This document shows positions 1 through 20,339 of a stretch of 25,342 bases of DNA, one piece after another. The stretch covers positions 1 to 25,342 of the forward strand of contig JBFRWD010000076.1 of NCBI GenBank assembly GCA_051439425.1, written 5' to 3'. This stretch comes from Synechococcus sp. (GTDB lineage Bacteria > Cyanobacteriota > Cyanobacteriia > Thermostichales > PCC-7336). Every line of letters begins with the position of its first letter. Positions within the stretch are counted from its first letter, which is position 1. The position numbers were made by a program, and so were the translations under genes. The notes under the pieces were generated by a model that worked only from the letters and a program-made list of their open reading frames with translations, did not search any database and had not been told where the DNA came from.

Positions 1-22
1 GTTCTAGTGCAGGGTAAAGAGT

Positions 23-238
23 ATGAATGGCCCAGGTTCGCTCAAAATCGAGCAGGAATTTAGATTGAAGACATTGAAAGATGCCCTCGCATCTGCCAAT
101 CACGACCAGTTAGAAGAGTTCTCAATCGAACTAGCCCGTCAGTTGATGCTGAAAGACAACTGGATCCAGCACATGTTTAAAGAGTGCTACCTCCCAGGTT
201 TGCCCAATCAAGGCTTCGGCAGAAAACATCCAGCCTAA
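23..238 (+). CDS. nblA: Phycobilisome degradation adaptor NblA
   Basis: 71 aa with the NblA pattern LKIEQEFRLKTL...NHDQLEEFSIELARQLMLKDN (cf. L.LEQ.F....f...v..ms.eQ....l..l..Q.m.k.n); cyanobacterial context. Confidence 0.85.
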   Translation: MNGPGSLKIEQEFRLKTLKDALASANHDQLEEFSIELARQLMLKDNWIQHMFKECYLPGLPNQGFGRKHPA

Positions 239-256
239 AGGGAATATCTAGCAATT

Positions 257-284
257 TGCCCTCGCATGCGAGGGCATTTCTTTC
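257..284 (+). terminator. Putative intrinsic terminator of nblA
   Basis: Perfect 20-bp palindrome TGCCCTCGCA/TGCGAGGGCA (257-276) followed by TTTCTTTC, 18 nt after the nblA stop. Confidence 0.7.
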
Positions 285-772
285 GTTCATTCGGTGGTTC
301 TGCCTGCGATTTTGCTTGATGAAATAGAAGATGAGGACAGGAAATTCTGAGAAATAATGCTTATTCTATGATGGCGTGCATGGTTAATATTTTGATTTCA
401 AGTCGGAATTACGCGCTAGTAAGTAGAAGGTGGATTGCTAAATTTAGTAGAATAAAGGAAGAGTCTGAGAGCATTATCCGCTAGCTAGGGAAACACTTGT
501 GATCGCCTGGAGATGCTCGATCGAGTGTTGCTTGCAATGATTTTGCAGCAGTTGTGTGGCAGCCTGAGTTCTAATATCTGCCACATATGCGGCATCAGGC
601 GATCGGTTTGTACCCCATTGTGTCGGGGAATGCCATGTGTAGGGGCCTGACTCTACCCCCGTACATGTTTGTGAGTTGAGTGTTATTCCGCCAGTAGTTC
701 GATCGCTCCTGAAATTCGTATCGAGCAGCATTGACTCTGGTATTGAACGTTAAATATTGAGAGGACAGGATC

Positions 773-2398
773 GTGCCACAACTAGCTCCTCACATTTTCG
801 ACCTCATGCATCGTCAGGGGGTGCAACACGCGTTTGGGATTCCGGGAGACTTTGCCCTCACCCTCTACGACGCCTTGGCTGATAGCGAAATTACGCCAGT
901 GGTCATGACTCACGAACCCTGTGCAGGGTTTGCTGCCGATGCCTACTCCCGCATCCGGGGGCTTGGATTGGCGGTAGTCACCTACGGTGTCGGCGGCTTG
1001 AATATGGTCAATTCAGTGGCAGGGGCCTATGCCGAAAAGTCACCGCTGGTTGTGTTGAGTGGTGGCCCGGGGGTAAAGGAACGGCAAGAACGAAAGCTAC
1101 TCCACCACAAAGTCAAGACCTTTGACACCCAGCGGCGAGTTTACGAAGAGGTCACTCTGTATGCTGCAACCCTAGACGATCCGGCCACAGCCGACGCCCA
1201 AATTCACAAGGCGATCGACTACGCCACCACCTTCAAGGGGCCCGTCTACCTGGAAATTCCCCGCGACATGGTTTACGCGGAGATTGAAGAAACTGGTTCT
1301 TCACTATCGCCGCTGAAACAAACCGATGCGGACACGCTGGCCGAAGTCCTAACCGAAACCCTCGATCGGCTGCAGCAAGCTAAATTGCCCGTAATGATGG
1401 TCGGGGCAGAGGTGCATCGGTTTGGCCTGCAAGAACGAGTGCTAGCGATTGCCGAAACCCTCGGACTACCTGTGTGCTCCACAATGCTGGGTAAATCAAC
1501 GTTCCCAGAAGGACACCCTCAATACATCGGAATTTACAACGGCGAGGCTGGGGATCCGTACGTGCGCCATCGGGTGGAGGGCTCGGATTGTCTGTTGATG
1601 TTGGGGGTATTCATGACCGACATCAACCTGGGTATGTTCACCGCTCACCTCGATCCGGTACGCACCATCTCGGCCACCTCTGACGGCGTGGCGATCGCTC
1701 ACCATCACTATTCACAGGTACGATTTGAGGACTTTATTGCCAGCTTGCAACGCCACCCCGATTTACCCAGGCGTCCTTCCAGCGATATTGTGGCCATGCA
1801 TCCGCGCGTTTCGCCGATGACAGGTCCTATTACCACTAGAGGGTTGATCCACGAACTGAACCAGTTTATCGACGGAAATACTCTACTGGTAACCGATGTG
1901 GGGGATACCCTGTTTGCTGCCGACGATATTCGGATGCAGGCGGGAACCTCATTTTTGTGCCCTGCCTTTTACGCCAGCATGGGATTCGCCATTCCCGGTG
2001 TCATTGGAGCCCAATTGGCCGACCCGTTCCGACGGGCGATCGCCCTGGTGGGTGACGGAGCCTTTCAGATGACAGGAATGGAACTGATCACCGCCCACCG
2101 GTTGGGGCTGAAACCGATTGCGATCGTATTGAATAACGGTTCGTTTGCCTCACTGCGATCGATGGGCCACGAGCAGGCGGCATTTGTGAATATCCCTCGC
2201 CTCGACTACGCCCAGCTGGTTGAGGTCTGGGGTGGGCAGGGATTTGTCATCGAAACCGTTCAAGAGTTAACGCAGGCATTGCACGCGGCTCGCGCCAGCG
2301 ACACTTTCAGCATTCTCGATGTGCGGCTGGCTGCCGATGCTGTCTCGCCTGCTTTGCACCATCTAAGTGCTCTGTTTGCCAAGACCCTGAAGGGGTAG
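773..2398 (+). CDS. ipdC: ThDP-dependent 2-oxo-acid decarboxylase, phenylpyruvate/indole-3-pyruvate decarboxylase (IpdC/PPDC) type
   Basis: [18 protein letters not shown] (catalytic Glu), [33 protein letters not shown] and GDGAFQMT...NN ThDP motif; N-terminal half closely resembles Azospirillum PPDC as recalled; GAGAGGA RBS before GTG. Confidence 0.85.
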
Positions 2399-2417
2399 CA
2401 GAGCCAGGAGGTTCCCT

Positions 2418-3884
2418 ATGGTAACTGCATTACAGACGTCGCTCAATCTCGCTCCCTCGCAACTGCTGATCGGCAACAAGTGGGTGGATAGTCTCTCGGG
2501 TAAAACCTTCGAGACCATCAATCCCGCTACTGGAGAAGCCATCGGGAGTATCGCGGAAGCGGGTGCTGCTGATGTCGATCGCGCTGTTGTTGCCGCTCGT
2601 GCTGCCTTCGCGCGGGGGGAATGGGCGAACATGTCTGCTCGGCAGCGGGGGGAACTGTTACGGGCATTGGCCGATCTGATCGAACGGTATCAGACCGAGC
2701 TGGCCGAATTAGAAAGTCTCGACAGTGGCAAGCTCTTCAGCCAAGCGCGGACGGTTGACTTGCCCCTCGCAATCCAATGCTATCGCTACTTTGCAGGATG
2801 GGCCGACAAAATTCAAGGGCGCACGATCCCTGTGGGGGACCCGTACTTCAGCTACACGCGCCACGAGCCGATCGGCGTTGTCGGTCAGATTATCCCCTGG
2901 AATTTTCCATTGCTGTTGCTGGCATGGAAACTGGCTCCAGCTCTGGCGGCGGGCAATACGGTGGTGCTGAAGCCCGCCAGCAACACCCCCCTGACAGCCC
3001 TGCGGGTCGGAGAACTGATCGTAGAGGCTGGATTTCCTCCGGGTGTCGTCAACATTCTGCCTGGCCCCGGATCGGAAACTGGGATGGCTATTGCCCAGCA
3101 TATGGATATCGACAAGGTGGCGTTTACGGGATCGACCGCCGTGGGACACGCGATCGCGGTTGCGGCGGCCAGCAGTAACCTTAAGCGGGTCACGTTGGAA
3201 TTGGGGGGCAAGAGTCCCAATATCGTGTTTGCCGATGCCGATATCCATGCCGCTTTGGAAGGGGCGCATTTAGGGCTGTTCTTCAATCAGGGGCAGTGTT
3301 GCACTGCTGGATCGCGGCTGTTTGTGGAAGAGAGCATCTACGACGAGTTCGTGCTCTGCTGCGTCGATCGCGCTCGGCGGCGGATTGTCGGAGCTCCTTG
3401 CGACCCCGAAACGGAGCAGGGGCCGCTGATCAGCGAGGTTCAGCGCGATCGGGTGATGGATTACATCGAAACGGGTATGCGCGAGGGGGCTCAGTTGATG
3501 TGTGGGGGCAACCGAGTGGGCGATCGCGGCTATTTTGTCGAGCCCACGGTGTTTGCGGATGTTCGCGATGATATGAGGATTGCGCGGGAAGAGATCTTCG
3601 GCCCGGTGATGAGCATCATCAAGTTCAAAGACGTTGATGAAGTGATTCGGCGCGCGAACAGCAGCATTTACGGCCTGGCAGCGGCGGTCTGGACCCGAGA
3701 TTTGTCCAAGGCCCACAACGTCGCCCATGCTCTCAAGGCCGGAACGGTCTGGGTGAATTGCTATGACTTTCTCGATTCTGCCGTCCCCTTTGGTGGGTTC
3801 AAGCAATCGGGGATGGGTCGGGAATTGGGGGAATACGCCCTGCAGGAATACACCGAGGTGAAGGCGGTGACCGTCAAGTTATAG
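2418..3884 (+). CDS. NAD(P)+-dependent aldehyde dehydrogenase (ALDH1/2-like family)
   Basis: [20 protein letters not shown] (catalytic Glu), FFNQGQCC (catalytic Cys), [25 protein letters not shown]; starts 19 nt after the decarboxylase stop. Confidence 0.95.
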
Positions 3885-3927
3885 ACAGCTTCAAACCTAC
3901 TGCTGTCAGATTGCCGAGGAGACTGAA

Positions 3928-5055
3928 ATGGATACGCTATTTCGATTTGCAGACGATTTGGGGCCGGATAAGATTGTCCACCTCTACGATCCTCAGACGG
4001 GATTGAAGGCCATTGTGGCGATCGACAATGTTGCGCTCGGCCCGGCGATTGGGGGGGTGAGGATGGCTCCTGATGTGACGGCGGAGGAGGTGTTTCGGCT
4101 GGCGCGGGCGATGACGCTGAAAAACGCGGTGGCCAACCTGCCGCACGGGGGTGGCAAGGCAGCGATTGTAGCCGATCCGAAACTGCCGCTGGAGCGCAAG
4201 GAGTTGTTGATGCGGTCGTTTGCGCGGGCGATCGCCTCGTTACAGGATTACATTCCCGGCCCGGATATGGGGACGGACGAGCAGTGTATGGCTTGGGTGT
4301 ATGGCGAGATTGGTCGTGCGATTGGGTTACCGGCGGCAATGGGAGGGATTCCGTTGGATGAAATTGGGGCGACGGGGTACGGGTTGGCGATCGCGACGGA
4401 GGTGGCGACTGACTATTGCGATGTCGAGTTAGAGGGGGCTCGCATGGTGGTGCAGGGGTTTGGGTCGGTGGGTCAGCACGCAGCGAAATTCCTGGGGGAG
4501 CGGGGGGCTGTCGTCGTTGGAATTGCTGATTCGGGTGGGACGTTGTTCGATCCGGACGGTATCGATCTAGAGGCTGCGATAGCGCTCAAGTCTGCCGGGC
4601 GCAGCATTGTCGAGCTGGGTCGGGGGACTGTGATGGATCTGGAGGGGGCGATCGCGATTGAATGCGACGTTTGGATTCCGGCGGCGCGTCCGGATGTGGT
4701 GCGTGTCGATAATATCGATCGCCTCAAGACCAAGCTAGTTGTTCAAGGGGCGAATATTCCGTTTACGGCGGAGGCGGAGGAGATCTGTCACGCCCAGAAC
4801 ATTTTGGTAATTCCGGACTTTATTGCCAATGCGGGTGGGGTAATTTGCGGTGCTGTGGAGTATAGTGGCGGGACTCAGACGGATGCGTTTGAGGTAATCT
4901 CCTCAGAGGTGCGGTCCAATACGGCATTGGTGTTGGAGGAGGCGGCGCAAACGGGACAGTTGCCCAGGCATGTGGCGATTGAGCTTGCTCAGTCTCGGAT
5001 TCGGGCCAAACAGACGCAAAGGATTCCTCTCGATGGGACGGCCATCCGTTCGTAA
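3928..5055 (+). CDS. Glu/Leu/Phe/Val-family amino acid dehydrogenase, probably not glutamate-specific
   Basis: GPAIGGVR, AMTLKN, LPHGGGK (catalytic Lys), PGPDMGT, QGFGSVG Rossmann motif, GAN.P, PDFIANAGGV; GAGGAG RBS; 43 nt after the ALDH stop. Confidence 0.9.
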   Translation: MDTLFRFADDLGPDKIVHLYDPQTGLKAIVAIDNVALGPAIGGVRMAPDVTAEEVFRLARAMTLKNAVANLPHGGGKAAIVADPKLPLERKELLMRSFARAIASLQDYIPGPDMGTDEQCMAWVYGEIGRAIGLPAAMGGIPLDEIGATGYGLAIATEVATDYCDVELEGARMVVQGFGSVGQHAAKFLGERGAVVVGIADSGGTLFDPDGIDLEAAIALKSAGRSIVELGRGTVMDLEGAIAIECDVWIPAARPDVVRVDNIDRLKTKLVVQGANIPFTAEAEEICHAQNILVIPDFIANAGGVICGAVEYSGGTQTDAFEVISSEVRSNTALVLEEAAQTGQLPRHVAIELAQSRIRAKQTQRIPLDGTAIRS

Positions 5056-5090
5056 TTCGGCAATTGCGGAGAGTAGTAAACTTCAAATCT

Positions 5091-5129
5091 GGGCGAGGTT
5101 CAATGCAGGGGGCGAGGTTCAATGCTGGG
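5091..5129. repeat. 19-bp-period tandem duplication
   Basis: GGGCGAGGTTCAATGC at 5091-5106 and 5110-5125. Confidence 0.8.
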
Positions 5130-5167
5130 TAACACTCAAGCCGAGGTTTCTCATGCAAATCAGTAGT

Positions 5168-6641
5168 GTTGGCATAGTTTTTGGTCCAAGTTGAAGAGTT
5201 GCCAGGATACTCGATGTTTGACGTATCCCATTCTTCGCCCCGGATGAATTCAGCCCCGTCAGTCGCCGCCAGCTTGTGTCCAAAAATCCGCCAAGAGATC
5301 GCGATTCAAGCCCTCTCAAAATCAGAACCAGTCAGCCATCTGGCAGCCGACTTTCAGGTGAGTCGTAAATTCGTTTATCAGCAAGCTCACCAAGCTCAGC
5401 AAGCCCTGGATGAGTCCTTCAGTTCAGCCGATGATGAATCAGAGGTGCTGTTCCACTTGCCAGTCACAAAGACCTGGCTGTTCCAGCTGATCCTGGCATT
5501 AGTGCTGATCTGCCACTGCTCCTACCGAGGTGTGGTCGAATTGTTTCGCGATCTATTCGATCTGCACATCAGTATTGGAACGATCCACAACCGCCTCCAA
5601 TCAGCAGCGGCGATCGCAACTGAGATCGATGAATCCTAGGAGTTGTCCGGGATCGATGTGGGCTTGCATGACGAAATTTACCAGGGCTCGCAACCGGTAT
5701 TAGCTGGAGTGGATGCGGCATCGACGTATTGCTATTTACTGCAAGGAGTGGAGAAGAGAGATAAGGATACTTGGGGTTGGTATCTCCTTGAGAGTATGGA
5801 GCAAGGGGTTGCTCCCGATTTCACCATCGGGGATGGCGGGCAAGGGTTGAGAGCTGGATAGAAAGCAGTGATGCCCGAGACTCCCTGCCATGGGGATGTG
5901 TTCCACATGCAGCGTCAGTTTGCCACCGTTGCCAAGGCTGTGTCACGACATTTTCGAACTAGCGTGGCCCTCACTGAAGGTACGACAAGAGTTATACGAT
6001 TTCATCATCGTCGAACTCCAGAAGCTAGAGTGTAAGCGACATCCAGCGATTCGCACACTCCGAAAGGTTTTAGGCAAACAACGGGATGATTTGTTGGTGT
6101 TCTCTGGAGTCATCGATCGCAAACTGGACACCATTGCTCGCAGTTTTAACTTGCCACTGCAGACAGTGATAGAGGTCTGTCTGCTGTTCAGGAAACGGCC
6201 GACATCTAATCCCTACTGGGAGTACTGGATCAGTTGCATTTCCAGCTCTCCGGGCAGTTTTATTCAGTGATGAAGGCGGTAGCTGAGGCGCTCAAGCAAA
6301 CTCCGAGAGCCAGCTCGCTGGTGGAGAATCTCAATTCCCGTCTGCGAAACTACTTTTTCCTGCGCAAGAGTTTGAGTAATTCCTATCTGAGCCTGTTGCA
6401 GTTTTTCCTGAATCACCGCCGGTTCATCCGTAGCCAGGTGGCTGAGCGCATAGGGAAGAGCCCCAGGGAACTAATGACTGGTGACGCTCACCCCCACTGG
6501 CTTGAAATGCTGGGATTCCAGCGCTTCCAGAGGGCGCGATCTCCCTACTTTTTTCCCGATTGACCCACTTTAATAGTTGGTCCATTTTTTGCTGCGACTG
6601 TTACCCCAAATGGCCCGTTTTTGAACCACTCCTCTGCCAAC
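5168..6641 (+). mobile_element. Degenerate insertion sequence (~1.47 kb) with imperfect terminal inverted repeats
   Basis: Left end GTTGGCATAGTTTTTGGTCCAA (5168-5189) vs reverse complement of right end GTTGGCAGAGGAGTGGTTCAA (6621-6641); encloses a fragmented transposase. Confidence 0.65.
5181..6563 (+). pseudogene. Fragmented DDE-type transposase of a cyanobacterial IS family
   Basis: N-terminal HTH (VSHLAADFQVSRKFVY), LHDEIYQ, TIGDGGQGLRAG..PCHGDVFH, RASSLVENLNSRLR; in-frame TAG stops at 5637-5639 and 5859-5861, frame changes near 5945 and 6235. Confidence 0.8.
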
Positions 6642-6841
6642 GTGCGAGAAGGGATGGGGATGAGGGCTTTCGAACTCTGGTTGTTCTGCGTTCTGCTCAA
6701 TACGCAGCTTGCCGTGATTCTGCTCCAAATCTACTCCTACTCAGACTGCAGCGGGGTCTACGAAAAAATCCAAAAAGGATGGTACCAACTTCTTGACTTT
6801 TATATGGTCTTATCAAATCAGGGAATGAGCCTTTTATTAAT

Positions 6842-6879
6842 CGTCCGTCCAACCTCACTCAGGCCGGACGCTTTTTTTT
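6842..6879 (+). terminator. Terminator-like hairpin with T-tract
   Basis: CGTCCG (6842-6847) pairs with CGGACG (6865-6870), inner CCT/AGG, followed by C and an 8-T run. Confidence 0.45.
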
Positions 6880-6977
6880 GAGAACAACTCTTCTCTTGCG
6901 GGATTTATTGCGTTTTAGGCACGAACTATTGTCGGACACAATTCTACTGTCGGGCAGGGGCTATTGCTGGGTGCACA

Positions 6978-7286
6978 TTAACGATACCGACGGGTCCGCC
7001 GACGAGACTTGCCCAGTTTCCACCGCATGACTTCTGCTTTATATTTCGTTTCACCATCTCCATGTTCGTAAACCTGTAGCCCAACTGACGTCGATCCGGG
7101 CAACAGTTTCTGCTCTTCAGAGTGCTCTTCACCTTCAAGGGCGACAAAAAATTTGAGTTTGGTTGCCCATTCCAAGACTGACATTGATTTTGAGTCTTCG
7201 GGAACTAAAGCCCCTACCGACAGGTTTGCTTCTCTGCCTTGCCTCAAAACCTGCTTGAGCAGCCCTTTTTGCTGCGATCGCACCAT
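6978..7286 (-). CDS. Hypothetical protein (~102 aa from ATG at 7286), no recognised family
   Basis: Open frame downstream of nblB in the same orientation with protein-like composition and a basic C-terminus (KSRRRTRRYR); start uncertain. Confidence 0.4.
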   Translation of the reverse strand: MVRSQQKGLLKQVLRQGREANLSVGALVPEDSKSMSVLEWATKLKFFVALEGEEHSEEQKLLPGSTSVGLQVYEHGDGETKYKAEVMRWKLGKSRRRTRRYR

Positions 7287-7439
7287 TAGCTTTAATCCCT
7301 TCAACGGGTTCAAACCATAGGTAAACAGGACTGTGTACATACGTGTCCTAGAAATCTCAACACACGGTATCAAGCAAAGTTATCCTAGCATTCCAGCCAG
7401 TGGGGAATCCTGTAGTCGATCGCACTGAAAAGCGTAAGA

Positions 7440-8111
7440 TTAGACCGTTTTCTCGAGTACATCTTTTGCAGTAGCCGCTACCTGCTCTTCCTCGTCTTGG
7501 GCTAGGGACTCTAGGAGAGCGCGAGCAGAATCCCCTCCTATTTTGCCGAGAGAAATGCAGACTCTATGGCGTGTTTGCCAGTCTGAATCGGTGGCCAATG
7601 TCTGCAGGGCTTCTAACCCGCGCTCATCTCCTAGATCCCCCAGTGCACTAGCGGCAGTCGCTCGGATCAAGACGTTGTCATCCGTTGCCGCTGCAAGGAT
7701 GGCATCCATGGCCCCCAGATCGCCCAGCTCTCCTAAAGCTGCGATAATGCTGAGCACCATCAGCCACTCATCTTCACGCTGCAATGCAGCCAGCAAATTT
7801 TGAAGGGTTCCTGGCTGCTTCAAATCCCCAAGCGCAGCAGCGGCAGCAGCTCGAACATCAACTTCTGGATCGGTTTCCAAGCGGTCTTTCAACAGAGAGA
7901 TGGGTTTCTCCCTGTCGCTCAGTTCTAGGGTGCCGATTTGGCTGATGGCCGCGTAACGAACACGTGTGTTGGAATCTGTGGCCAAGCTAGACAGCAGCGG
8001 TAGGGCGTTATCGCCTGACAGCTCGCGCGCCTGGTTGATTGCCTTGATGCGATCGCCCCAGTTCTCAGAACTGGCTAACTGATTGAGTTCCTCTATGGTT
8101 ACGGGGGGCAC
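7440..8111 (-). CDS. nblB: NblB-type PBS-lyase HEAT-repeat protein
   Basis: N-terminus SSENWGDRIKAINQAREL, then HEAT repeats (RVRYAAISQIG, DPEVDVRAAAAAALGDL, SIIAALGELGD, DWQTRHRV) characteristic of NblB. Confidence 0.8.
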   Translation of the reverse strand: MPPVTIEELNQLASSENWGDRIKAINQARELSGDNALPLLSSLATDSNTRVRYAAISQIGTLELSDREKPISLLKDRLETDPEVDVRAAAAAALGDLKQPGTLQNLLAALQREDEWLMVLSIIAALGELGDLGAMDAILAAATDDNVLIRATAASALGDLGDERGLEALQTLATDSDWQTRHRVCISLGKIGGDSARALLESLAQDEEEQVAATAKDVLEKTV

Positions 8112-15689: not shown

Positions 15690-16511
15690 TTACTCGGGCT
15701 GGCATTGGGGGCAATAGTAGCAGCGACGACCTCCTAAGGTTTCTTTCACGATTGGGGTATGGCAGGTGCGGCAGGGTTTGCCTTTGCGGCTGAAGACGTA
15801 AAAACGGTAGTCGCGACGGCGATAGCCTTCGGATTTGAGGGCCAGGGCGGTGTCGAGATCGTTGGTGATGCCTTTGGTTTCGTAAGACTGGCGGGTGATG
15901 GTCAGGATGTTGTCTGCCAAGTTGTCGAGCTGGGTTGGGCTGCAGTCAATAGGGCGTTGGGATGGGTGTAGGCCGCTGACGAATAGGATTTCGCTGCGCA
16001 GGTAGTTACCTAATCCACTGAGGCACTGTTGGTCGAGTAGAAGGGTGCTGAAGCGGCGGCGATGGAACTGCTTTTGCTGGAGGCGATCTCGGACTGTGTC
16101 CACAGTTGTGTGCTCATCTAAGACATCTGGCCCCAGTTTGCGTAAGAACGGATGTTCCACAATATCGCTGTCGGTGAGAACAGAGATGTCAGACGCGCTG
16201 TAGAGCAAGGCGGATTTGTGGGGGGTGTGGATGGCCAGTCGCAGTTGGCGGTTGGTGGCAGGGTAATTGTGGGCTTTGCGAATCATCCAGACGCCGTAGA
16301 GCTGGTTGTGGCTGTAGATGCTGAGGTCGTTGGAGAAGCGGATCAGCATGGCTTTGCCGCGTGGCTTGACGCTGACGACGGTTTCACCGGTCAGTTCTGC
16401 TTCGAAGAGTTTGAGGCGGTCGAAGGCGAAGAAGACGTCTGTGGTTGATTGGTTGAGGAGGGCAGCGGCGATGCGATCGGCTGACTGGCGAATTTCTGGA
16501 CCTTCAGGCAT
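15690..16511 (-). CDS. nei: Endonuclease VIII (Nei) DNA glycosylase/AP lyase
   Basis: N-terminal PEGPE, RGKAML..F..DLSIYSHNQLYGVW, H2TH LLLDQ..LSGLGNYLRSEIL, C-terminal zinc finger CxxC...CPQCQ. Confidence 0.93.
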   Translation of the reverse strand: MPEGPEIRQSADRIAAALLNQSTTDVFFAFDRLKLFEAELTGETVVSVKPRGKAMLIRFSNDLSIYSHNQLYGVWMIRKAHNYPATNRQLRLAIHTPHKSALLYSASDISVLTDSDIVEHPFLRKLGPDVLDEHTTVDTVRDRLQQKQFHRRRFSTLLLDQQCLSGLGNYLRSEILFVSGLHPSQRPIDCSPTQLDNLADNILTITRQSYETKGITNDLDTALALKSEGYRRRDYRFYVFSRKGKPCRTCHTPIVKETLGGRRCYYCPQCQPE

Positions 16512-17276: not shown

Positions 17277-18752
17277 TTAAAACGGCAAATCATCAACCGA
17301 CCAATCCTCGCTTGACTCAGCCGCCCGTCTCCCACCATGCTTGGGCACCAATTTTAATGGCTTAGCCACTCGCTGCTTCTTCCTATTGCTTCCACGACGC
17401 CGATCGCTCGTCCGCTCCTCCACCGTGTCCTCCGCAATCACCTCGTACAGCACCGCCTGCTTACTGCGATCCGCCCCCTTCCGCAAAATCCGCCCCAGCC
17501 GTTGCACATACTCCCGCGTCGATCCCGTCCCCGACAGCAGAACAGCCACCTTCACCTCCGGCACATCCACCCCCTCATTCAGCACGTGCGACACCACTAA
17601 AGTTTTGTAGGTGCCATCCCGAAAAAACTCCAGCGTCGAATGCCGCTCCTTCACAGGCGTCTGATGAGTAATCGCCGGAATCAAACAGTCTTGCGAGATG
17701 CGATAAACCGTTGCATTGTCGTTCGTAAAAATCAGCACCCGCTCCCCATCGTGCCGCTGCAGCAAGTCAATCAGAATGCGTAACTTTCCCTCTGTCCCCA
17801 ACGCAATCTGCTTCGCCTCCCGATGGGCCAACATCGCCCTGCGCCCCTGAGGCGATCGCGCACTCTCTGTCACAAACCGCTGCCATCCCTGCAAATATCC
17901 CAACCGAATTTTGGAGTCCCTCAGAAACTGGTTCCGCACCTCAATTAAGGACTCGTACCGTTCCCGCTCCTCCGCCGTCAGCTTTACCGCCAGCCGCACA
18001 ATCTCGTAATCTGCCAGCGCCGTGCCTGCCAAATCCTCCGCCGACTTGCGATAGACCTCCGGCCCAATCAACTCCATCAAATCTTCATGCCGCCCATCGC
18101 TGCGCTCCGGCGTCGCCGTCAACCCCAGACGGTAGGGGGCGATCGCGTACTCTGCAATTACCCGATTAAAATCGCTCGGCAAATGGTGGCACTCATCAAA
18201 CACCACCCCGCCATACTTCCCTCCCAACGTCTCCGCATGAATAGCTGCACTATCGTACGTTGCCACCAAAATCGGAGAGCGATCGCGCGAGCCTCCCCCC
18301 AACAAACCGATTTCAGTATTGGGAAACGCCGCTACCAATTGCTCGTACCACTGATGCATCAGATCCAGCGTGGGCACCACAATCAGACAACTGCGCCCCA
18401 TCTCCTGCAACACTAAGTGGGCTAGATAGGTCTTCCCCGATCCCGTTGGCAATACCACTACACCGCGCCCTCCAGCCTGCTTCCAGGCGCTAAGAGCCTC
18501 CCGCTGATGCACGTAAGCCTTGCGTCGCGTTCGGGATTCGAGCGTTAGCTGCTGATATCCCCGCGCCTTATCTTCAAATTCTGTCGGCTCCAAATGCAGC
18601 CGCTCCACCAATTGACGATAATAAATCGCCGGGATGCGAAACCGTTCGATGCGATCGTCCCAAGTGGCAAAATCAATCCAGGCCTTTCCTCTGGGTGGGG
18701 GGTGCAGAATGAGCGTGCCGCGATCGTAGGTGAGGACGGGAAGGCGAGGCAT
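17277..18752 (-). CDS. SF2 helicase, XPB/Rad25 (SSL2)-like
   Basis: LPTGSGKT, FDECHHL, LGLTATPER, VLNEGVDVP, QRLGRILR; N-terminal WDDR...R.PA..Y segment. Confidence 0.9.
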   Translation of the reverse strand: MPRLPVLTYDRGTLILHPPPRGKAWIDFATWDDRIERFRIPAIYYRQLVERLHLEPTEFEDKARGYQQLTLESRTRRKAYVHQREALSAWKQAGGRGVVVLPTGSGKTYLAHLVLQEMGRSCLIVVPTLDLMHQWYEQLVAAFPNTEIGLLGGGSRDRSPILVATYDSAAIHAETLGGKYGGVVFDECHHLPSDFNRVIAEYAIAPYRLGLTATPERSDGRHEDLMELIGPEVYRKSAEDLAGTALADYEIVRLAVKLTAEERERYESLIEVRNQFLRDSKIRLGYLQGWQRFVTESARSPQGRRAMLAHREAKQIALGTEGKLRILIDLLQRHDGERVLIFTNDNATVYRISQDCLIPAITHQTPVKERHSTLEFFRDGTYKTLVVSHVLNEGVDVPEVKVAVLLSGTGSTREYVQRLGRILRKGADRSKQAVLYEVIAEDTVEERTSDRRRGSNRKKQRVAKPLKLVPKHGGRRAAESSEDWSVDDLPF

Positions 18753-18858: not shown

Positions 18859-20259
18859 CTACGTTTTCCAGACAATGCTCCTGCGAGTCAGCCAGCGTAC
18901 GATCGCTGCTGTCAACCAAACCGTAGCCACGGCATAGGCCACCTGAATCCAGACGGGTAAACCGTTTACCCAGCCATCGATTCCCACCAACGCCAAGATC
19001 GGCACTGCCAAATTCGCTAACGCCACATAAGCAATCATGGGGTTTTGTCCATTGGCGATCGCCAGCGAAAACAGCCGTACCCCCCCCAACTGATGAATCG
19101 CGATCGTGCAAGCAATCAGGAGCAAAACAGCTAACCCAGAACAGACAAAGAAGTAACTGAGCGTCGGTGGATCTTTCTTGATCCCCATCTCGTAGGGCTC
19201 CAAAAACAATCCCGTACCCAGCCAGATCGCGCCCCAGCGGTACCAGTCTGCTATCAGCCGTTCTTTTGTGCCCTCCGGTCGGCTCAGCAGTACCCAGCCA
19301 GCCACTGCCAATCCCGCACACACCAACAGCCACGCGATTCCCCACCGTTCCTGCAATCCCACGACCACTGCAACTGCTAAGATCACCTGCGTTACCGCGA
19401 TCGCCCGCAGTCGCCCATCTCTCCATCTCCTTAGATATTGGAGTTTGTCAAAACTCTGCAGCCAGCGATCGCCCACCAACGTCCCGGGAATCACCAGTGC
19501 CAAATAGGTCAAATACTCCCATCGAAACAGCCAGGGAACTGGCGTCCAACTCCATACCTGCTGCACCCAGCTAGCCTCCGTCCCCCCCAACCGCATCGCC
19601 AACAACAATCCCAAGAACCCCAGCCGTACCGCCGGGCGATCGCGCGTGCACACCCACACCAAGCCCCCAGCCACCGCCGCATTGGTCAACAAAATTAAAA
19701 TGATGTCGCTGCGAGCCAGCGAAAACCCACTGCCATCGGGATAGCGCAATATAGCCAGCAGACCCGCCAGTAGCGCCCAGCCAATACCGCGGACAACCCA
19801 GCGAACCTTCACGGCCATGCGATTGGGCAAGCGGCCAAACGTTGGGAACAGCAAGCAAAAGCCCAGCAATGCGATCCCATATGTAGAGGCAGTCGGAGCG
19901 TCAGATAGAACCAATGGCCGCAGGTGTTGTACCGCGATCGCAAACACCCCTAACGTCACTCCCCGAGCCAGCACCCGTACCCCCAACTGCCAGTCCGAAT
20001 CTCCGCGTTTCACCCGCCGAGACAGTGCCAGCGGAATAGACATCCCCAATGCAAACAGGAAGAAGGGAAAGACCACATCCACCCAGGTAATGCCGGGAAT
20101 CGTGGGGGCAAAGATGTGTTCGGGAGGGGGCACTTGGGCGTGATACATCCAGTCGGGCAGCACGCCGTAAGGGACTGCAGCCGAAAGCAACATGCCTACA
20201 ATGGCGATGCCCCGCAGTGCATCCAGCCCGAGACATCTGCGAGTGGGGGGTGGAGACAT
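18859..20259 (-). CDS. DUF5009/NagX-like (HGSNAT-related) multi-pass membrane protein
   Basis: LDALRGIAI.GM, WMYHAQVPPP, GITWVDVVFPFFLF..G..IP, GIKKDPPTLSY, GQNPMIAY, C-terminal WKT; likely start ATG 20259. Confidence 0.8.
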   Translation of the reverse strand: MSPPPTRRCLGLDALRGIAIVGMLLSAAVPYGVLPDWMYHAQVPPPEHIFAPTIPGITWVDVVFPFFLFALGMSIPLALSRRVKRGDSDWQLGVRVLARGVTLGVFAIAVQHLRPLVLSDAPTASTYGIALLGFCLLFPTFGRLPNRMAVKVRWVVRGIGWALLAGLLAILRYPDGSGFSLARSDIILILLTNAAVAGGLVWVCTRDRPAVRLGFLGLLLAMRLGGTEASWVQQVWSWTPVPWLFRWEYLTYLALVIPGTLVGDRWLQSFDKLQYLRRWRDGRLRAIAVTQVILAVAVVVGLQERWGIAWLLVCAGLAVAGWVLLSRPEGTKERLIADWYRWGAIWLGTGLFLEPYEMGIKKDPPTLSYFFVCSGLAVLLLIACTIAIHQLGGVRLFSLAIANGQNPMIAYVALANLAVPILALVGIDGWVNGLPVWIQVAYAVATVWLTAAIVRWLTRRSIVWKT

Positions 20260-20339
20260 AGTCAGACTAATAAGCAAGGAGAATTAATCCGGGTGTACTG
20301 TTGCTTCTCCATCTGCGCCATAAAAGAAAACTCGAAATC

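Follow-up and report, generated by a model that had tools for sequence, protein, structure and literature searches.

Auxin production by cyanobacteria has been reported repeatedly, and its first step is assumed to be catalysed by an unidentified aminotransferase in the extracts of the literature on which we draw (PMC4318279, PMC10575698). The indole-3-pyruvate route to indole-3-acetate (IAA) and phenylacetate (PAA) likewise begins with an aminotransferase in the extract of PMC4318279, and proceeds by decarboxylation of the arylpyruvate and oxidation of the resulting aldehyde. Experimental data exist for two cyanobacterial thiamine diphosphate (ThDP)-dependent 2-oxo-acid decarboxylases, namely MaKDC (MAE36750) from Microcystis aeruginosa, which decarboxylates 2-ketoisocaproate, 2-ketoisovalerate and phenylpyruvate (PMC4103566), and the ipdC product of Nostoc OS-1, for which a knock-out lowers IAA (extract of PMC4318279). 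Here we describe a locus on contig JBFRWD010000076.1 of Synechococcus sp., all 25,342 bases of which were analysed (the window; the assembly is 4.8 Mb and 96% complete). It encodes a cyanobacterial ThDP-dependent 2-oxo-acid decarboxylase (DC) in a putative operon with an aldehyde dehydrogenase (ALDH) and an amino-acid dehydrogenase of the ELFV family (ELFV1), so that a dehydrogenase gene is found where the described route uses an aminotransferase. We consider it probable that the three enzymes make up one catabolic or biosynthetic module, which would convert a hydrophobic L-amino acid to the acid one carbon shorter, the most probable substrates being aromatic (Phe, Trp or Tyr). An indole-3-pyruvate or Ehrlich route entered through a dehydrogenase would be a new element on known pathways.

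The three genes lie on the plus strand in the order DC (773-2398, 541 aa, GTG start), ALDH (2418-3884, 488 aa, ATG start) and ELFV1 (3928-5055, 375 aa, ATG start), separated by gaps of 19 nt (2399-2417) and 43 nt (3885-3927). Reading of the sequence places a Shine-Dalgarno-like GAGGA (761-765, plus strand) 7 nt before the GTG of DC, a Shine-Dalgarno AGGAGG (2406-2411, plus strand) 6 nt before the ATG of ALDH, and a Shine-Dalgarno-like GAGGAG (3916-3921, plus strand) 6 nt before that of ELFV1. The co-orientation, the two gaps and a ribosome-binding site before each gene had been described in a first-pass annotation of this DNA and agree with these coordinates; the order given in its title, with the dehydrogenase first, followed by the phenylpyruvate/indolepyruvate decarboxylase and ALDH, is not the order of the genes. 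A terminator scan of the operon region found no terminator-like site after either internal stop codon or after the last stop, and the genes are presumably co-transcribed. The same scan gave 6 hairpin-plus-T matches in the region against 4.1 expected, including three weak plus-strand matches between 773 and 5055 that all fall within coding sequences.

DC contains the Pfam domains TPP_enzyme_N, M and C, all above their cut-offs, and its translation carries the ThDP cofactor motif GDG...NN (GDGAFQ...NNG). By a wide margin, its best solved relative is the phenylpyruvate decarboxylase of Azospirillum brasilense (AbPPDC, 2nxw; 355.5 bits over residues 5-525), with KivD/KdcA at 241-246 bits, pyruvate decarboxylases at 182-208 bits and the indolepyruvate decarboxylase of Enterobacter cloacae (EcIPDC) at 189 bits. 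The HH motif, the active-site Asp and the cofactor-activating Glu are present in DC and in all 30 aligned homologues, save that five homologues in the 43-45%-identity tier have Glu in place of the first active-site Asp. Where EcIPDC has its catalytic Glu (Glu468), DC has Leu461, its SFASLRS aligning with SWEMLRT of AbPPDC and YTVEREI of KivD. Among HH-motif decarboxylases, replacement of this Glu by Leu or Ala is described only for AbPPDC in the extract of PMC9045302. The Leu is present in the window DC, in 9 of 9 close orthologues and in five homologues of 43-45% identity that come from small genomes within the phylum; Glu is kept in all 16 cyanobacterial homologues of the 34-44% tier, in motifs of the NDGYTIER or NGGYVTER type. 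In the KivD alignment, DC has Ile, Leu, Ser, Leu and Phe at KdcA Ser286, Phe381, Val461, Met538 and Phe542, which we take to shape the substrate pocket. The counterparts of the first three in pyruvate decarboxylase are presumably Tyr290, Trp392 and Ile472, and DC has no such bulky Tyr or Trp. DC is thus likely to be an AbPPDC-type ThDP-dependent 2-oxo-acid decarboxylase, with predicted activity on phenylpyruvate or indolepyruvate.

The five more distant homologues with Leu come from genomes of ~2 Mb in another class of the phylum (L077-L081, in G355, G126, G153, G359 and G165). Their 43-45%-identical decarboxylases combine Leu at the catalytic-Glu position with Glu for the first active-site Asp, and no ELFV gene was found within 1.5 kb of them. 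Nostoc OS-1 ipdC could not be tied to the DC group through its published primers: these have no exact match in 106 loci, and allowing up to 4 mismatches gave one chance match, in a proteobacterial locus.

ELFV1 carries the Pfam domains ELFV_dehydrog_N and ELFV_dehydrog, and it matches hexameric glutamate dehydrogenases (GDHs) best, both among solved structures and among NCBIfam models (200 bits, with residues 33-315 aligned), with leucine dehydrogenases (LeuDHs) aligning over the full length at no more than 137 bits. In the extract of PMC2723916, specificity in this superfamily is set by LeuDH positions 40, 113, 291 and 294, of which 40 and 294 correspond to GDH Lys89 and Ser380, and 113 and 291 are altered in phenylalanine dehydrogenase (PheDH). 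These GDH residues, Lys and Ser, bind the gamma-carboxylate of 2-oxoglutarate (PMC8784811). The pocket residues of ELFV1 at the four positions are Ile41, Gly111, Val305 and Gly308, with Ile41 and Gly308 standing at GDH Lys89 and Ser380 (C. symbiosum numbering); in the alignment with GDHs of the PDB, ELFV1 reads GPAIGG for GPAKGG, GGVICG for GGVTVS and PGPD for PAPD. Since Lys89 and Ser380 are replaced by Ile and Gly, ELFV1 does not appear to be a glutamate dehydrogenase. Compared with the LeuDH pocket (L40/A113/V291/V294), it has smaller residues at two of the four positions, and its predicted pocket, which is hydrophobic, leaves more space than the LeuDH pocket.

The pocket positions were also read in the 120 best database relatives of ELFV1. 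Position 40 is Ile in 104, Met in 12, Leu in 2 and Val in 2, and never Lys; Gly stands at position 113 in 119, and at position 294 there are 67 relatives with Ala and 52 with Gly. The catalytic machinery is present as Lys65, Lys77 and Asp113 in ELFV1, both lysines (catalytic and alpha-carboxyl-binding) being found without exception in the 120 relatives, and the Asp being kept by 92 of them. In the other 28 the catalytic Asp is Asn (PGPDMG to PGPNMG), among them a Xenococcaceae copy (L004:5013-6176, P0007) at a locus that also carries a second ELFV gene resembling tryptophan dehydrogenase; such Asn-bearing copies may have altered or reduced activity. No specific name is attached to any of the 120 best database hits of the subfamily. 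A quick maximum-likelihood tree places the 9 cyanobacterial ELFV1 sequences together, in a group that is weakly supported (SH-aLRT 80). Residues and gene neighbours together make an aromatic specificity of the module likely.

The third protein, ALDH, matches Pfam Aldedh over its full length (630 bits over 22-484), and among solved enzymes scores 674-680 bits against human and bovine ALDH2 and up to 674 bits against ALDH1A. These matches assign it to the NAD(P)+ aldehyde dehydrogenases of class 1/2 type. Its highest score on an NCBIfam model, that of phenylacetaldehyde dehydrogenase StyD, speaks in favour of the aromatic reading.

Taken together, the three families suggest the following sequence of reactions. 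ELFV1 would oxidatively deaminate the amino acid to the 2-oxo acid, giving ammonium and NAD(P)H; the AbPPDC-type DC would then irreversibly remove CO2 to leave an aldehyde, which ALDH would oxidise to phenylacetate, indole-3-acetate or 4-hydroxyphenylacetate with formation of a second NAD(P)H. Because the equilibrium of amino-acid dehydrogenases favours amination, the irreversible decarboxylase, together with ALDH, would pull the first step forward, which would be a reason for the dehydrogenase and decarboxylase genes to stay together.

A different reading of the same three families is a bypass in which a GDH, a 2-oxoglutarate decarboxylase and a succinate-semialdehyde dehydrogenase (SSADH) convert glutamate via 2-oxoglutarate and succinic semialdehyde to succinate, as a shunt of the cyanobacterial tricarboxylic acid cycle. 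A decarboxylase paired with an ALDH does follow the logic of the known cyanobacterial shunt (extract of PMC10418658). GDHs are the best-scoring matches of ELFV1, and a search of the source genome at E<=1e-40 found no ELFV protein other than ELFV1. The first-pass annotation had itself named a dehydrogenase specific for glutamate, or a decarboxylase specific for pyruvate or 2-oxoglutarate, as findings that would speak against an amino-acid-to-acid pathway. ELFV1 lacks the glutamate-binding Lys and Ser, the Lys being absent there in all 120 relatives as well. DC belongs to the pyruvate/phenylpyruvate decarboxylase type and resembles AbPPDC; it is not of acetolactate-synthase type, for which the genome holds a separate candidate that passes PRK08322 with 751.5 bits, and it is this latter type that we take to be that of the cyanobacterial 2-oxoglutarate decarboxylase. 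ALDH, finally, scores 403.4 bits on the SSADH model TIGR01780, under the cut-off of 646.35, as against 610 on that of phenylacetaldehyde dehydrogenase StyD. We therefore regard the glutamate bypass as scarcely credible.

The strongest link between the genes comes from their neighbourhood in other genomes. A scan with ELFV1 as query over one genome per prokaryote species returned 68 loci, and in 6 of the 6 cyanobacterial loci a DC orthologue of 73-97% identity adjoins the dehydrogenase gene. No such orthologue stands next to the dehydrogenase in any of the 62 non-cyanobacterial loci; at one of these, L049, the opposite strand carries a pair of ThDP-enzyme homologues of 27-31% identity. When 400 genomes were sampled evenly across the phylum, close DC orthologues (at least 63% identity) turned up in 6, four of them intact and two broken, and an ELFV gene lies directly downstream of all four intact copies and of one broken copy. 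This downstream gene is ELFV1 (63% identical) in two genomes and a member of a second subfamily, ELFV2, in the remainder. The reverse search of the same sample detected ELFV1 orthologues in just 2 genomes besides the window's own, both beside DC; the remaining ELFV1 matches are ordinary GDHs of 31-41% identity, in frames of ~413-506 aa with a few longer.

A census of all 389 genomes of the cyanobacterial family that holds most carriers (f8) found DC in 20; of these copies 18 are intact, one is truncated where its contig ends and one is broken. An ELFV dehydrogenase gene adjoins 15 of the 18 intact orthologues: ELFV1 is present in 12, two of which also have ELFV2 (with ELFV1 short in one of these two), and ELFV2 stands alone in 3, split into two open reading frames (ORFs) in one. 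Conserved linkage, the lack of which had been named as a refutation in the first-pass annotation, is thus borne out for decarboxylase and dehydrogenase; it strongly supports a functional coupling of the two, and these two genes are the conserved unit. The same cluster occurs outside the family in the window, L001, L002 and L004, which are not independent of ELFV1, since three of the four were found with ELFV1 as query; together with the 18 intact clusters of the family they make up the 22 clusters considered below. Among cultured strains, Synechococcus sp. PCC 7336 carries both DC (WP_017325114) and ELFV1 (WP_017325112), and further carriers include, by their database names, several Nostoc and Calothrix strains. 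In the open-access literature that we searched, we found no description of this dehydrogenase-decarboxylase linkage or of the ELFV1 subfamily.

ELFV2 is only 26-31% identical to ELFV1. It scores 503-533 bits on the model of the tryptophan dehydrogenase (TrpDH) ScyB, whose cut-off of 600 is not reached, and 443.7 bits against the solved TrpDH of Nostoc (5b37); like ELFV1, it has Gly at position 113. Intact ELFV2 genes lie beside DC orthologues in G020, G370, G506/L003, L004 and G524, and split or broken ones in G680 and G071. Occupation of the same slot by two distantly related ELFV subfamilies points to a shared function and not to mere common ancestry. No aminotransferase gene was found in the operon or in the 22 clusters. 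In L001, the closest relative of the window, a gene for a class-III aminotransferase lies ~2.3 kb upstream with one for an HglS-like 2-oxoadipate dioxygenase/decarboxylase (L001:183-2440), ahead of nblA and the operon; the window contig ends before the matching region.

Outside the cyanobacteria, flanking genes were scanned at 25 ELFV1 loci from Proteobacteria, Desulfobacterota, Nitrospinota and other phyla. In ~12 of the 25, ELFV1 is followed by the gamma/delta and alpha subunits of a 2-oxoacid:ferredoxin oxidoreductase (OFOR). Upstream genes encode E1 alpha, E1 beta and E2 of a 2-oxo-acid dehydrogenase complex at L008, and E1 alpha and E2 at L030. These neighbours suggest that throughout the subfamily the 2-oxo acid made by the dehydrogenase passes to a decarboxylating enzyme, and the cyanobacteria differ in having a predicted non-oxidative decarboxylase as the partner. 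At two proteobacterial loci (L014:4357-6789, L019:4331-6775), a gene for a LonC-like protease lies upstream of ELFV1 on the opposite strand; downstream of ELFV1 are OFOR subunit genes in L019 and a gene for an AMP-binding enzyme in L014.

A number of observations weigh against an aromatic amino-acid-to-acid module. DC fits best the NCBIfam model for indolepyruvate/phenylpyruvate decarboxylase (TIGR03394), at 459.8 bits and under its cut-off of 554.5. The best model for ALDH is StyD (NF045736), at 609.8 bits and under the cut-off of 800, and the betaine-aldehyde dehydrogenase model scores nearly the same (596.8). ELFV1 reaches only 130.8 bits on the ScyB model (NF035922; cut-off 600). ALDH is present in just 5 of the 22 clusters (the window, L001, L002, L004 and G524), so the full trio is not the conserved unit. 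Three of the 18 intact DC orthologues have no ELFV gene in the fetched flanks, their neighbours being unrelated, and the 20 carrier genomes of the family fall in 11 genera and are thus not independent.

The last of these points also bear on whether the genes share a pathway at all. They could simply be neighbours, or the aldehyde could be the real product, on the way to an alcohol or natural product, with ALDH merely detoxifying it. The lack of ALDH from 17 of the 22 clusters, the three DC orthologues without a dehydrogenase and the transposase genes that flank many clusters would all fit such a reading. Against it stand the short gaps (19 and 43 nt) and the ribosome-binding sites, the lack of a terminator-like site after the internal stops, the repeated dehydrogenase-decarboxylase adjacency with two subfamilies, and the recurrence of the same trio in five loci, and we judge it improbable. 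The first-pass annotation had proposed a complete amino-acid-to-acid pathway in one operon, entered by oxidative deamination; the enzyme identities and the coupling of dehydrogenase to decarboxylase support this in part, but the complete trio does not hold as a conserved unit.

The remaining objections concern the substrate. Val at LeuDH position 291 is retained in ELFV1, as in LeuDH. The OFOR neighbours of its relatives match the pyruvate/2-ketoisovalerate models TIGR02175 and TIGR02179 above their cut-offs (best models PorA/PorC/PorD), and the E1 alpha neighbour scores 459.6 on TIGR03181, the pyruvate dehydrogenase model, whose cut-off is 411. Given this Val and these pyruvate/2-ketoisovalerate-type partners, the ancestral ELFV1 substrate may be aliphatic or small. 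MaKDC prefers branched-chain oxo acids (2-ketoisocaproate), with 65% relative activity on phenylpyruvate and 0.3% on indolepyruvate (PMC4103566).

Such partners would suit an alanine route in which ELFV1 acts as an ELFV-type alanine dehydrogenase and the product passes through pyruvate and acetaldehyde to acetate. The neighbouring PorA/PorC/PorD-type oxidoreductases and the E1 alpha subunit that passes TIGR03181 speak for it. However, a pocket lined with Gly, Gly, Val and Ile gives more room than alanine would require, and DC has Ile, Leu and Ser at the sites that we take to correspond to KdcA Ser286, Phe381 and Val461. Nor is AbPPDC, the nearest relative of DC, known to use pyruvate, and the Microcystis homologue MaKDC showed no activity on it. 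The alanine route appears highly improbable.

The same chemistry could also act on aliphatic substrates, in an Ehrlich-type route from Leu, Ile, Val or Met to isovalerate and similar acids that would mainly release ammonium and reducing power. Val at position 291 and the hydrophobic residue at position 40 of ELFV1 are compatible with this, as are the OFOR neighbours that pass TIGR02175 and TIGR02179, the preference of the characterised cyanobacterial enzyme MaKDC for 2-ketoisocaproate, and KivD/KdcA as the second-best solved relatives of DC. Nevertheless, DC is clearly nearer to AbPPDC, with which it shares the Glu-to-Leu change; its orthologues pair with TrpDH-like enzymes in at least five genomes; and Gly at positions 113 and 294 implies a larger pocket than the Ala and Val of LeuDH. 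On this balance, which is completed by the upstream region discussed below, the aliphatic route is unlikely, and we favour the aromatic module.

From the aromatic module one can extend, more tentatively, to an evolutionary proposal, which we put forward as possible but doubtful in its full form. ELFV1 would represent an uncharacterised class of aromatic or broad hydrophobic amino-acid dehydrogenases on a GDH backbone, which in anaerobes and facultative bacteria feeds ferredoxin- or lipoamide-linked oxidoreductases. Cyanobacteria would have re-wired it to a non-oxidative PPDC-type decarboxylase, with or without ALDH. This would give a compact cassette, mobile by horizontal transfer and in no need of an aminotransferase, that makes arylacetates (PAA, IAA) and ammonium from amino acids, with the dehydrogenase slot filled interchangeably by ELFV1 or by a ScyB-like TrpDH paralogue. 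If true, this would supply the genes behind the tryptophan-dependent auxin production of cyanobacteria, which has long been reported but is poorly assigned.

The decarboxylase-dehydrogenase unit is rare and patchy, and probably mobile, within cyanobacteria. Transposases are encoded no more than a few kb away in L003, L006, G370, G071 and G524. Decaying copies are found, including DC genes with in-frame stops in G071 (L105) and G101 (L106), an ELFV2 split into two ORFs in G680 (L164) and an ELFV1 of 291 aa in G524 (L163:98-973). The window itself is marked as cyanobacterial by the density of the HIP1 element (GCGATCGC), with 36 sites against 0.58 expected; DC and ALDH hold 2 each and ELFV1 holds 3, which corresponds to 1.6 per kb in the operon and 1.4 per kb in the rest of the window. 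From HIP1 sites in all three genes, long residence in a cyanobacterial lineage had been proposed in the first-pass annotation. The density fits this idea, but the distribution of the cluster is patchy, with about one carrier per 100 genomes in the phylum sample, and transposase genes are often found beside it. The G+C content is 0.55-0.60 in the operon and about 0.49-0.58 elsewhere in the window.

Other genes recur around the pair. A PanE/ApbA-family reductase is encoded between DC and ELFV1 in G506/L003 and G443 (L003:2913-3797, L148:2161-3042). Members of this family can reduce 2-oxo acids, and the placement would fit a shared 2-oxo-acid intermediate. A YbdK-type carboxylate-amine ligase gene lies upstream in several Nostoc-type loci (L006:3766-4929, L007:3879-5042), and a gamma-glutamyltranspeptidase gene near the pair in two loci (L003:7602-9155, L103:10667-12229).

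Directly upstream of the operon in the window is nblA (23-238, plus strand; PF04485, 50.7 bits), which encodes a 71-aa NblA phycobilisome degradation protein and is followed by a terminator-like hairpin at 257-276. The order of nblA and operon is repeated in L001 and L002 and in 0 of the other 10 cyanobacterial loci tested. This position hints at a context of nitrogen starvation, in which the release of ammonium by an aliphatic route would have a place; however, the nblA linkage is confined to three close relatives, and there is no NtcA-type site (GTAN8TAC) upstream of the operon or of nblA, the 4 in the window (1.96 expected) including none before 5726. The sole plus-strand promoter-like match in the region, at 731-758, is badly placed, being so near the start codon that the ribosome-binding site would be cut into, and 2 promoter-like matches against 2.7 expected are at chance level. 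A search for a riboswitch or other known RNA in the 500-nt leader gave no Rfam match at E<=0.1 in 1-7500.

Directly after the operon lies a decayed repeat (5150-6600) with ORFs at 5181-5639, 5890-6270 and 6234-6563. Elsewhere in the same genome, other contigs hold 16 matches to it (65-89% identity), and at the nucleotide level it is ~70% identical to 'hypothetical protein' genes that occur in multiple copies on plasmids of Acaryochloris. Its three ORFs (5181-6563) have no match in Pfam, NCBIfam or PHROGs, and the repeat is probably a broken transposase of an undescribed type. Farther along the window, an XPB/Rad25-like helicase is encoded on the minus strand at 17277-18752, with an XPB damage-recognition domain (PF18458, 88.6 bits). 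This gene is two reading frames downstream of one for an Fpg-type DNA glycosylase (15690-16511), and a DUF5009 protein is encoded just upstream of the helicase at 18859-20277.

An expression survey covered 17 runs, one of which was RNA. A 308-nt contig from this RNA library, a metatranscriptome, matches 713-1020 perfectly, starting 60 nt before the start codon of DC and reaching neither gene junction, and it may reflect carry-over of DNA; elsewhere on the window the RNA run gives short, imperfect and partial matches only. Other metagenomes, of marine sediment and marine origin, contain DNA contigs that span the DC-ALDH junction at 100% and ~95% identity. An orthologue of DC is expressed in Chlorogloeopsis fritschii: WP_016877391, which clusters at 90% with P0177 (itself 72% identical to DC of the window), is called IpdC in the extract of PMC7693272 and is reported there to be up under UV-B with a log2 fold change of 3.93.

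The role of the module could lie in an arylacetate signal or antimicrobial (IAA, PAA) or in the salvage of nitrogen and reductant from amino acids; an auxin role for a marine sediment lineage is speculative. The dehydrogenase-decarboxylase pair nonetheless offers a concrete, testable gene set for cyanobacterial auxin production. It also points to a large, generically named subfamily of ELFV dehydrogenases in which we found no assayed member, enzymes of a kind sought as biocatalysts for chiral amino acids and amines. With one slot taken by either of two subfamilies, and a non-oxidative enzyme in place of the oxidative partner, it would be a clear case of pathway rewiring, and we infer that the change from oxidative to non-oxidative partner may be related to oxygen tolerance.

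Comparison with described enzymes places each part of the system close to, but apart from, a known counterpart. AbPPDC (PDB 2nxw, 2q5j-2q5q) resembles DC in its three ThDP domains, its HH motif and the Leu at the catalytic-Glu position, and differs in having Met beside that Leu, where DC has Ser. LeuDH and PheDH (1leh, 6acf, 1c1d) and the GDHs (8kao, 2tmg, 1b26) share the fold and catalytic lysines of ELFV1, and the first two also its hydrophobic side-chain pocket. Its pocket pattern of I/G/V/G is neither the K/A/V/S of GDH nor the L/A/V/V of LeuDH, and the GDHs have ~30 further N-terminal residues, their alignments beginning at residue 33 of the 375 in ELFV1. At the level of the pair, the nearest parallel is ScyB, the TrpDH of N. 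punctiforme (5b37), with the ThDP enzyme ScyA of scytonemin synthesis, in which an ELFV dehydrogenase makes an arylpyruvate for an adjacent ThDP enzyme, as is predicted for the present pair. ScyA is an acyloin-forming enzyme of acetolactate-synthase type. Here the ThDP partner is a PPDC-type decarboxylase and ELFV1 is of a different subfamily from ScyB; in the loci scanned, no other ThDP enzymes or aromatic amino-acid biosynthesis genes were found beside the pair, although no search was aimed at scytonemin genes. Bacillus-type bkd operons, too, encode an ELFV dehydrogenase, together with an enzyme that decarboxylates oxidatively and gives acyl-CoA. Both the bkd and the dehydrogenase-OFOR units are oxidative and lead to acyl-CoA, whereas the cyanobacterial version has no ferredoxin-linked enzyme and would instead combine non-oxidative decarboxylation with an ALDH to yield the free acid.

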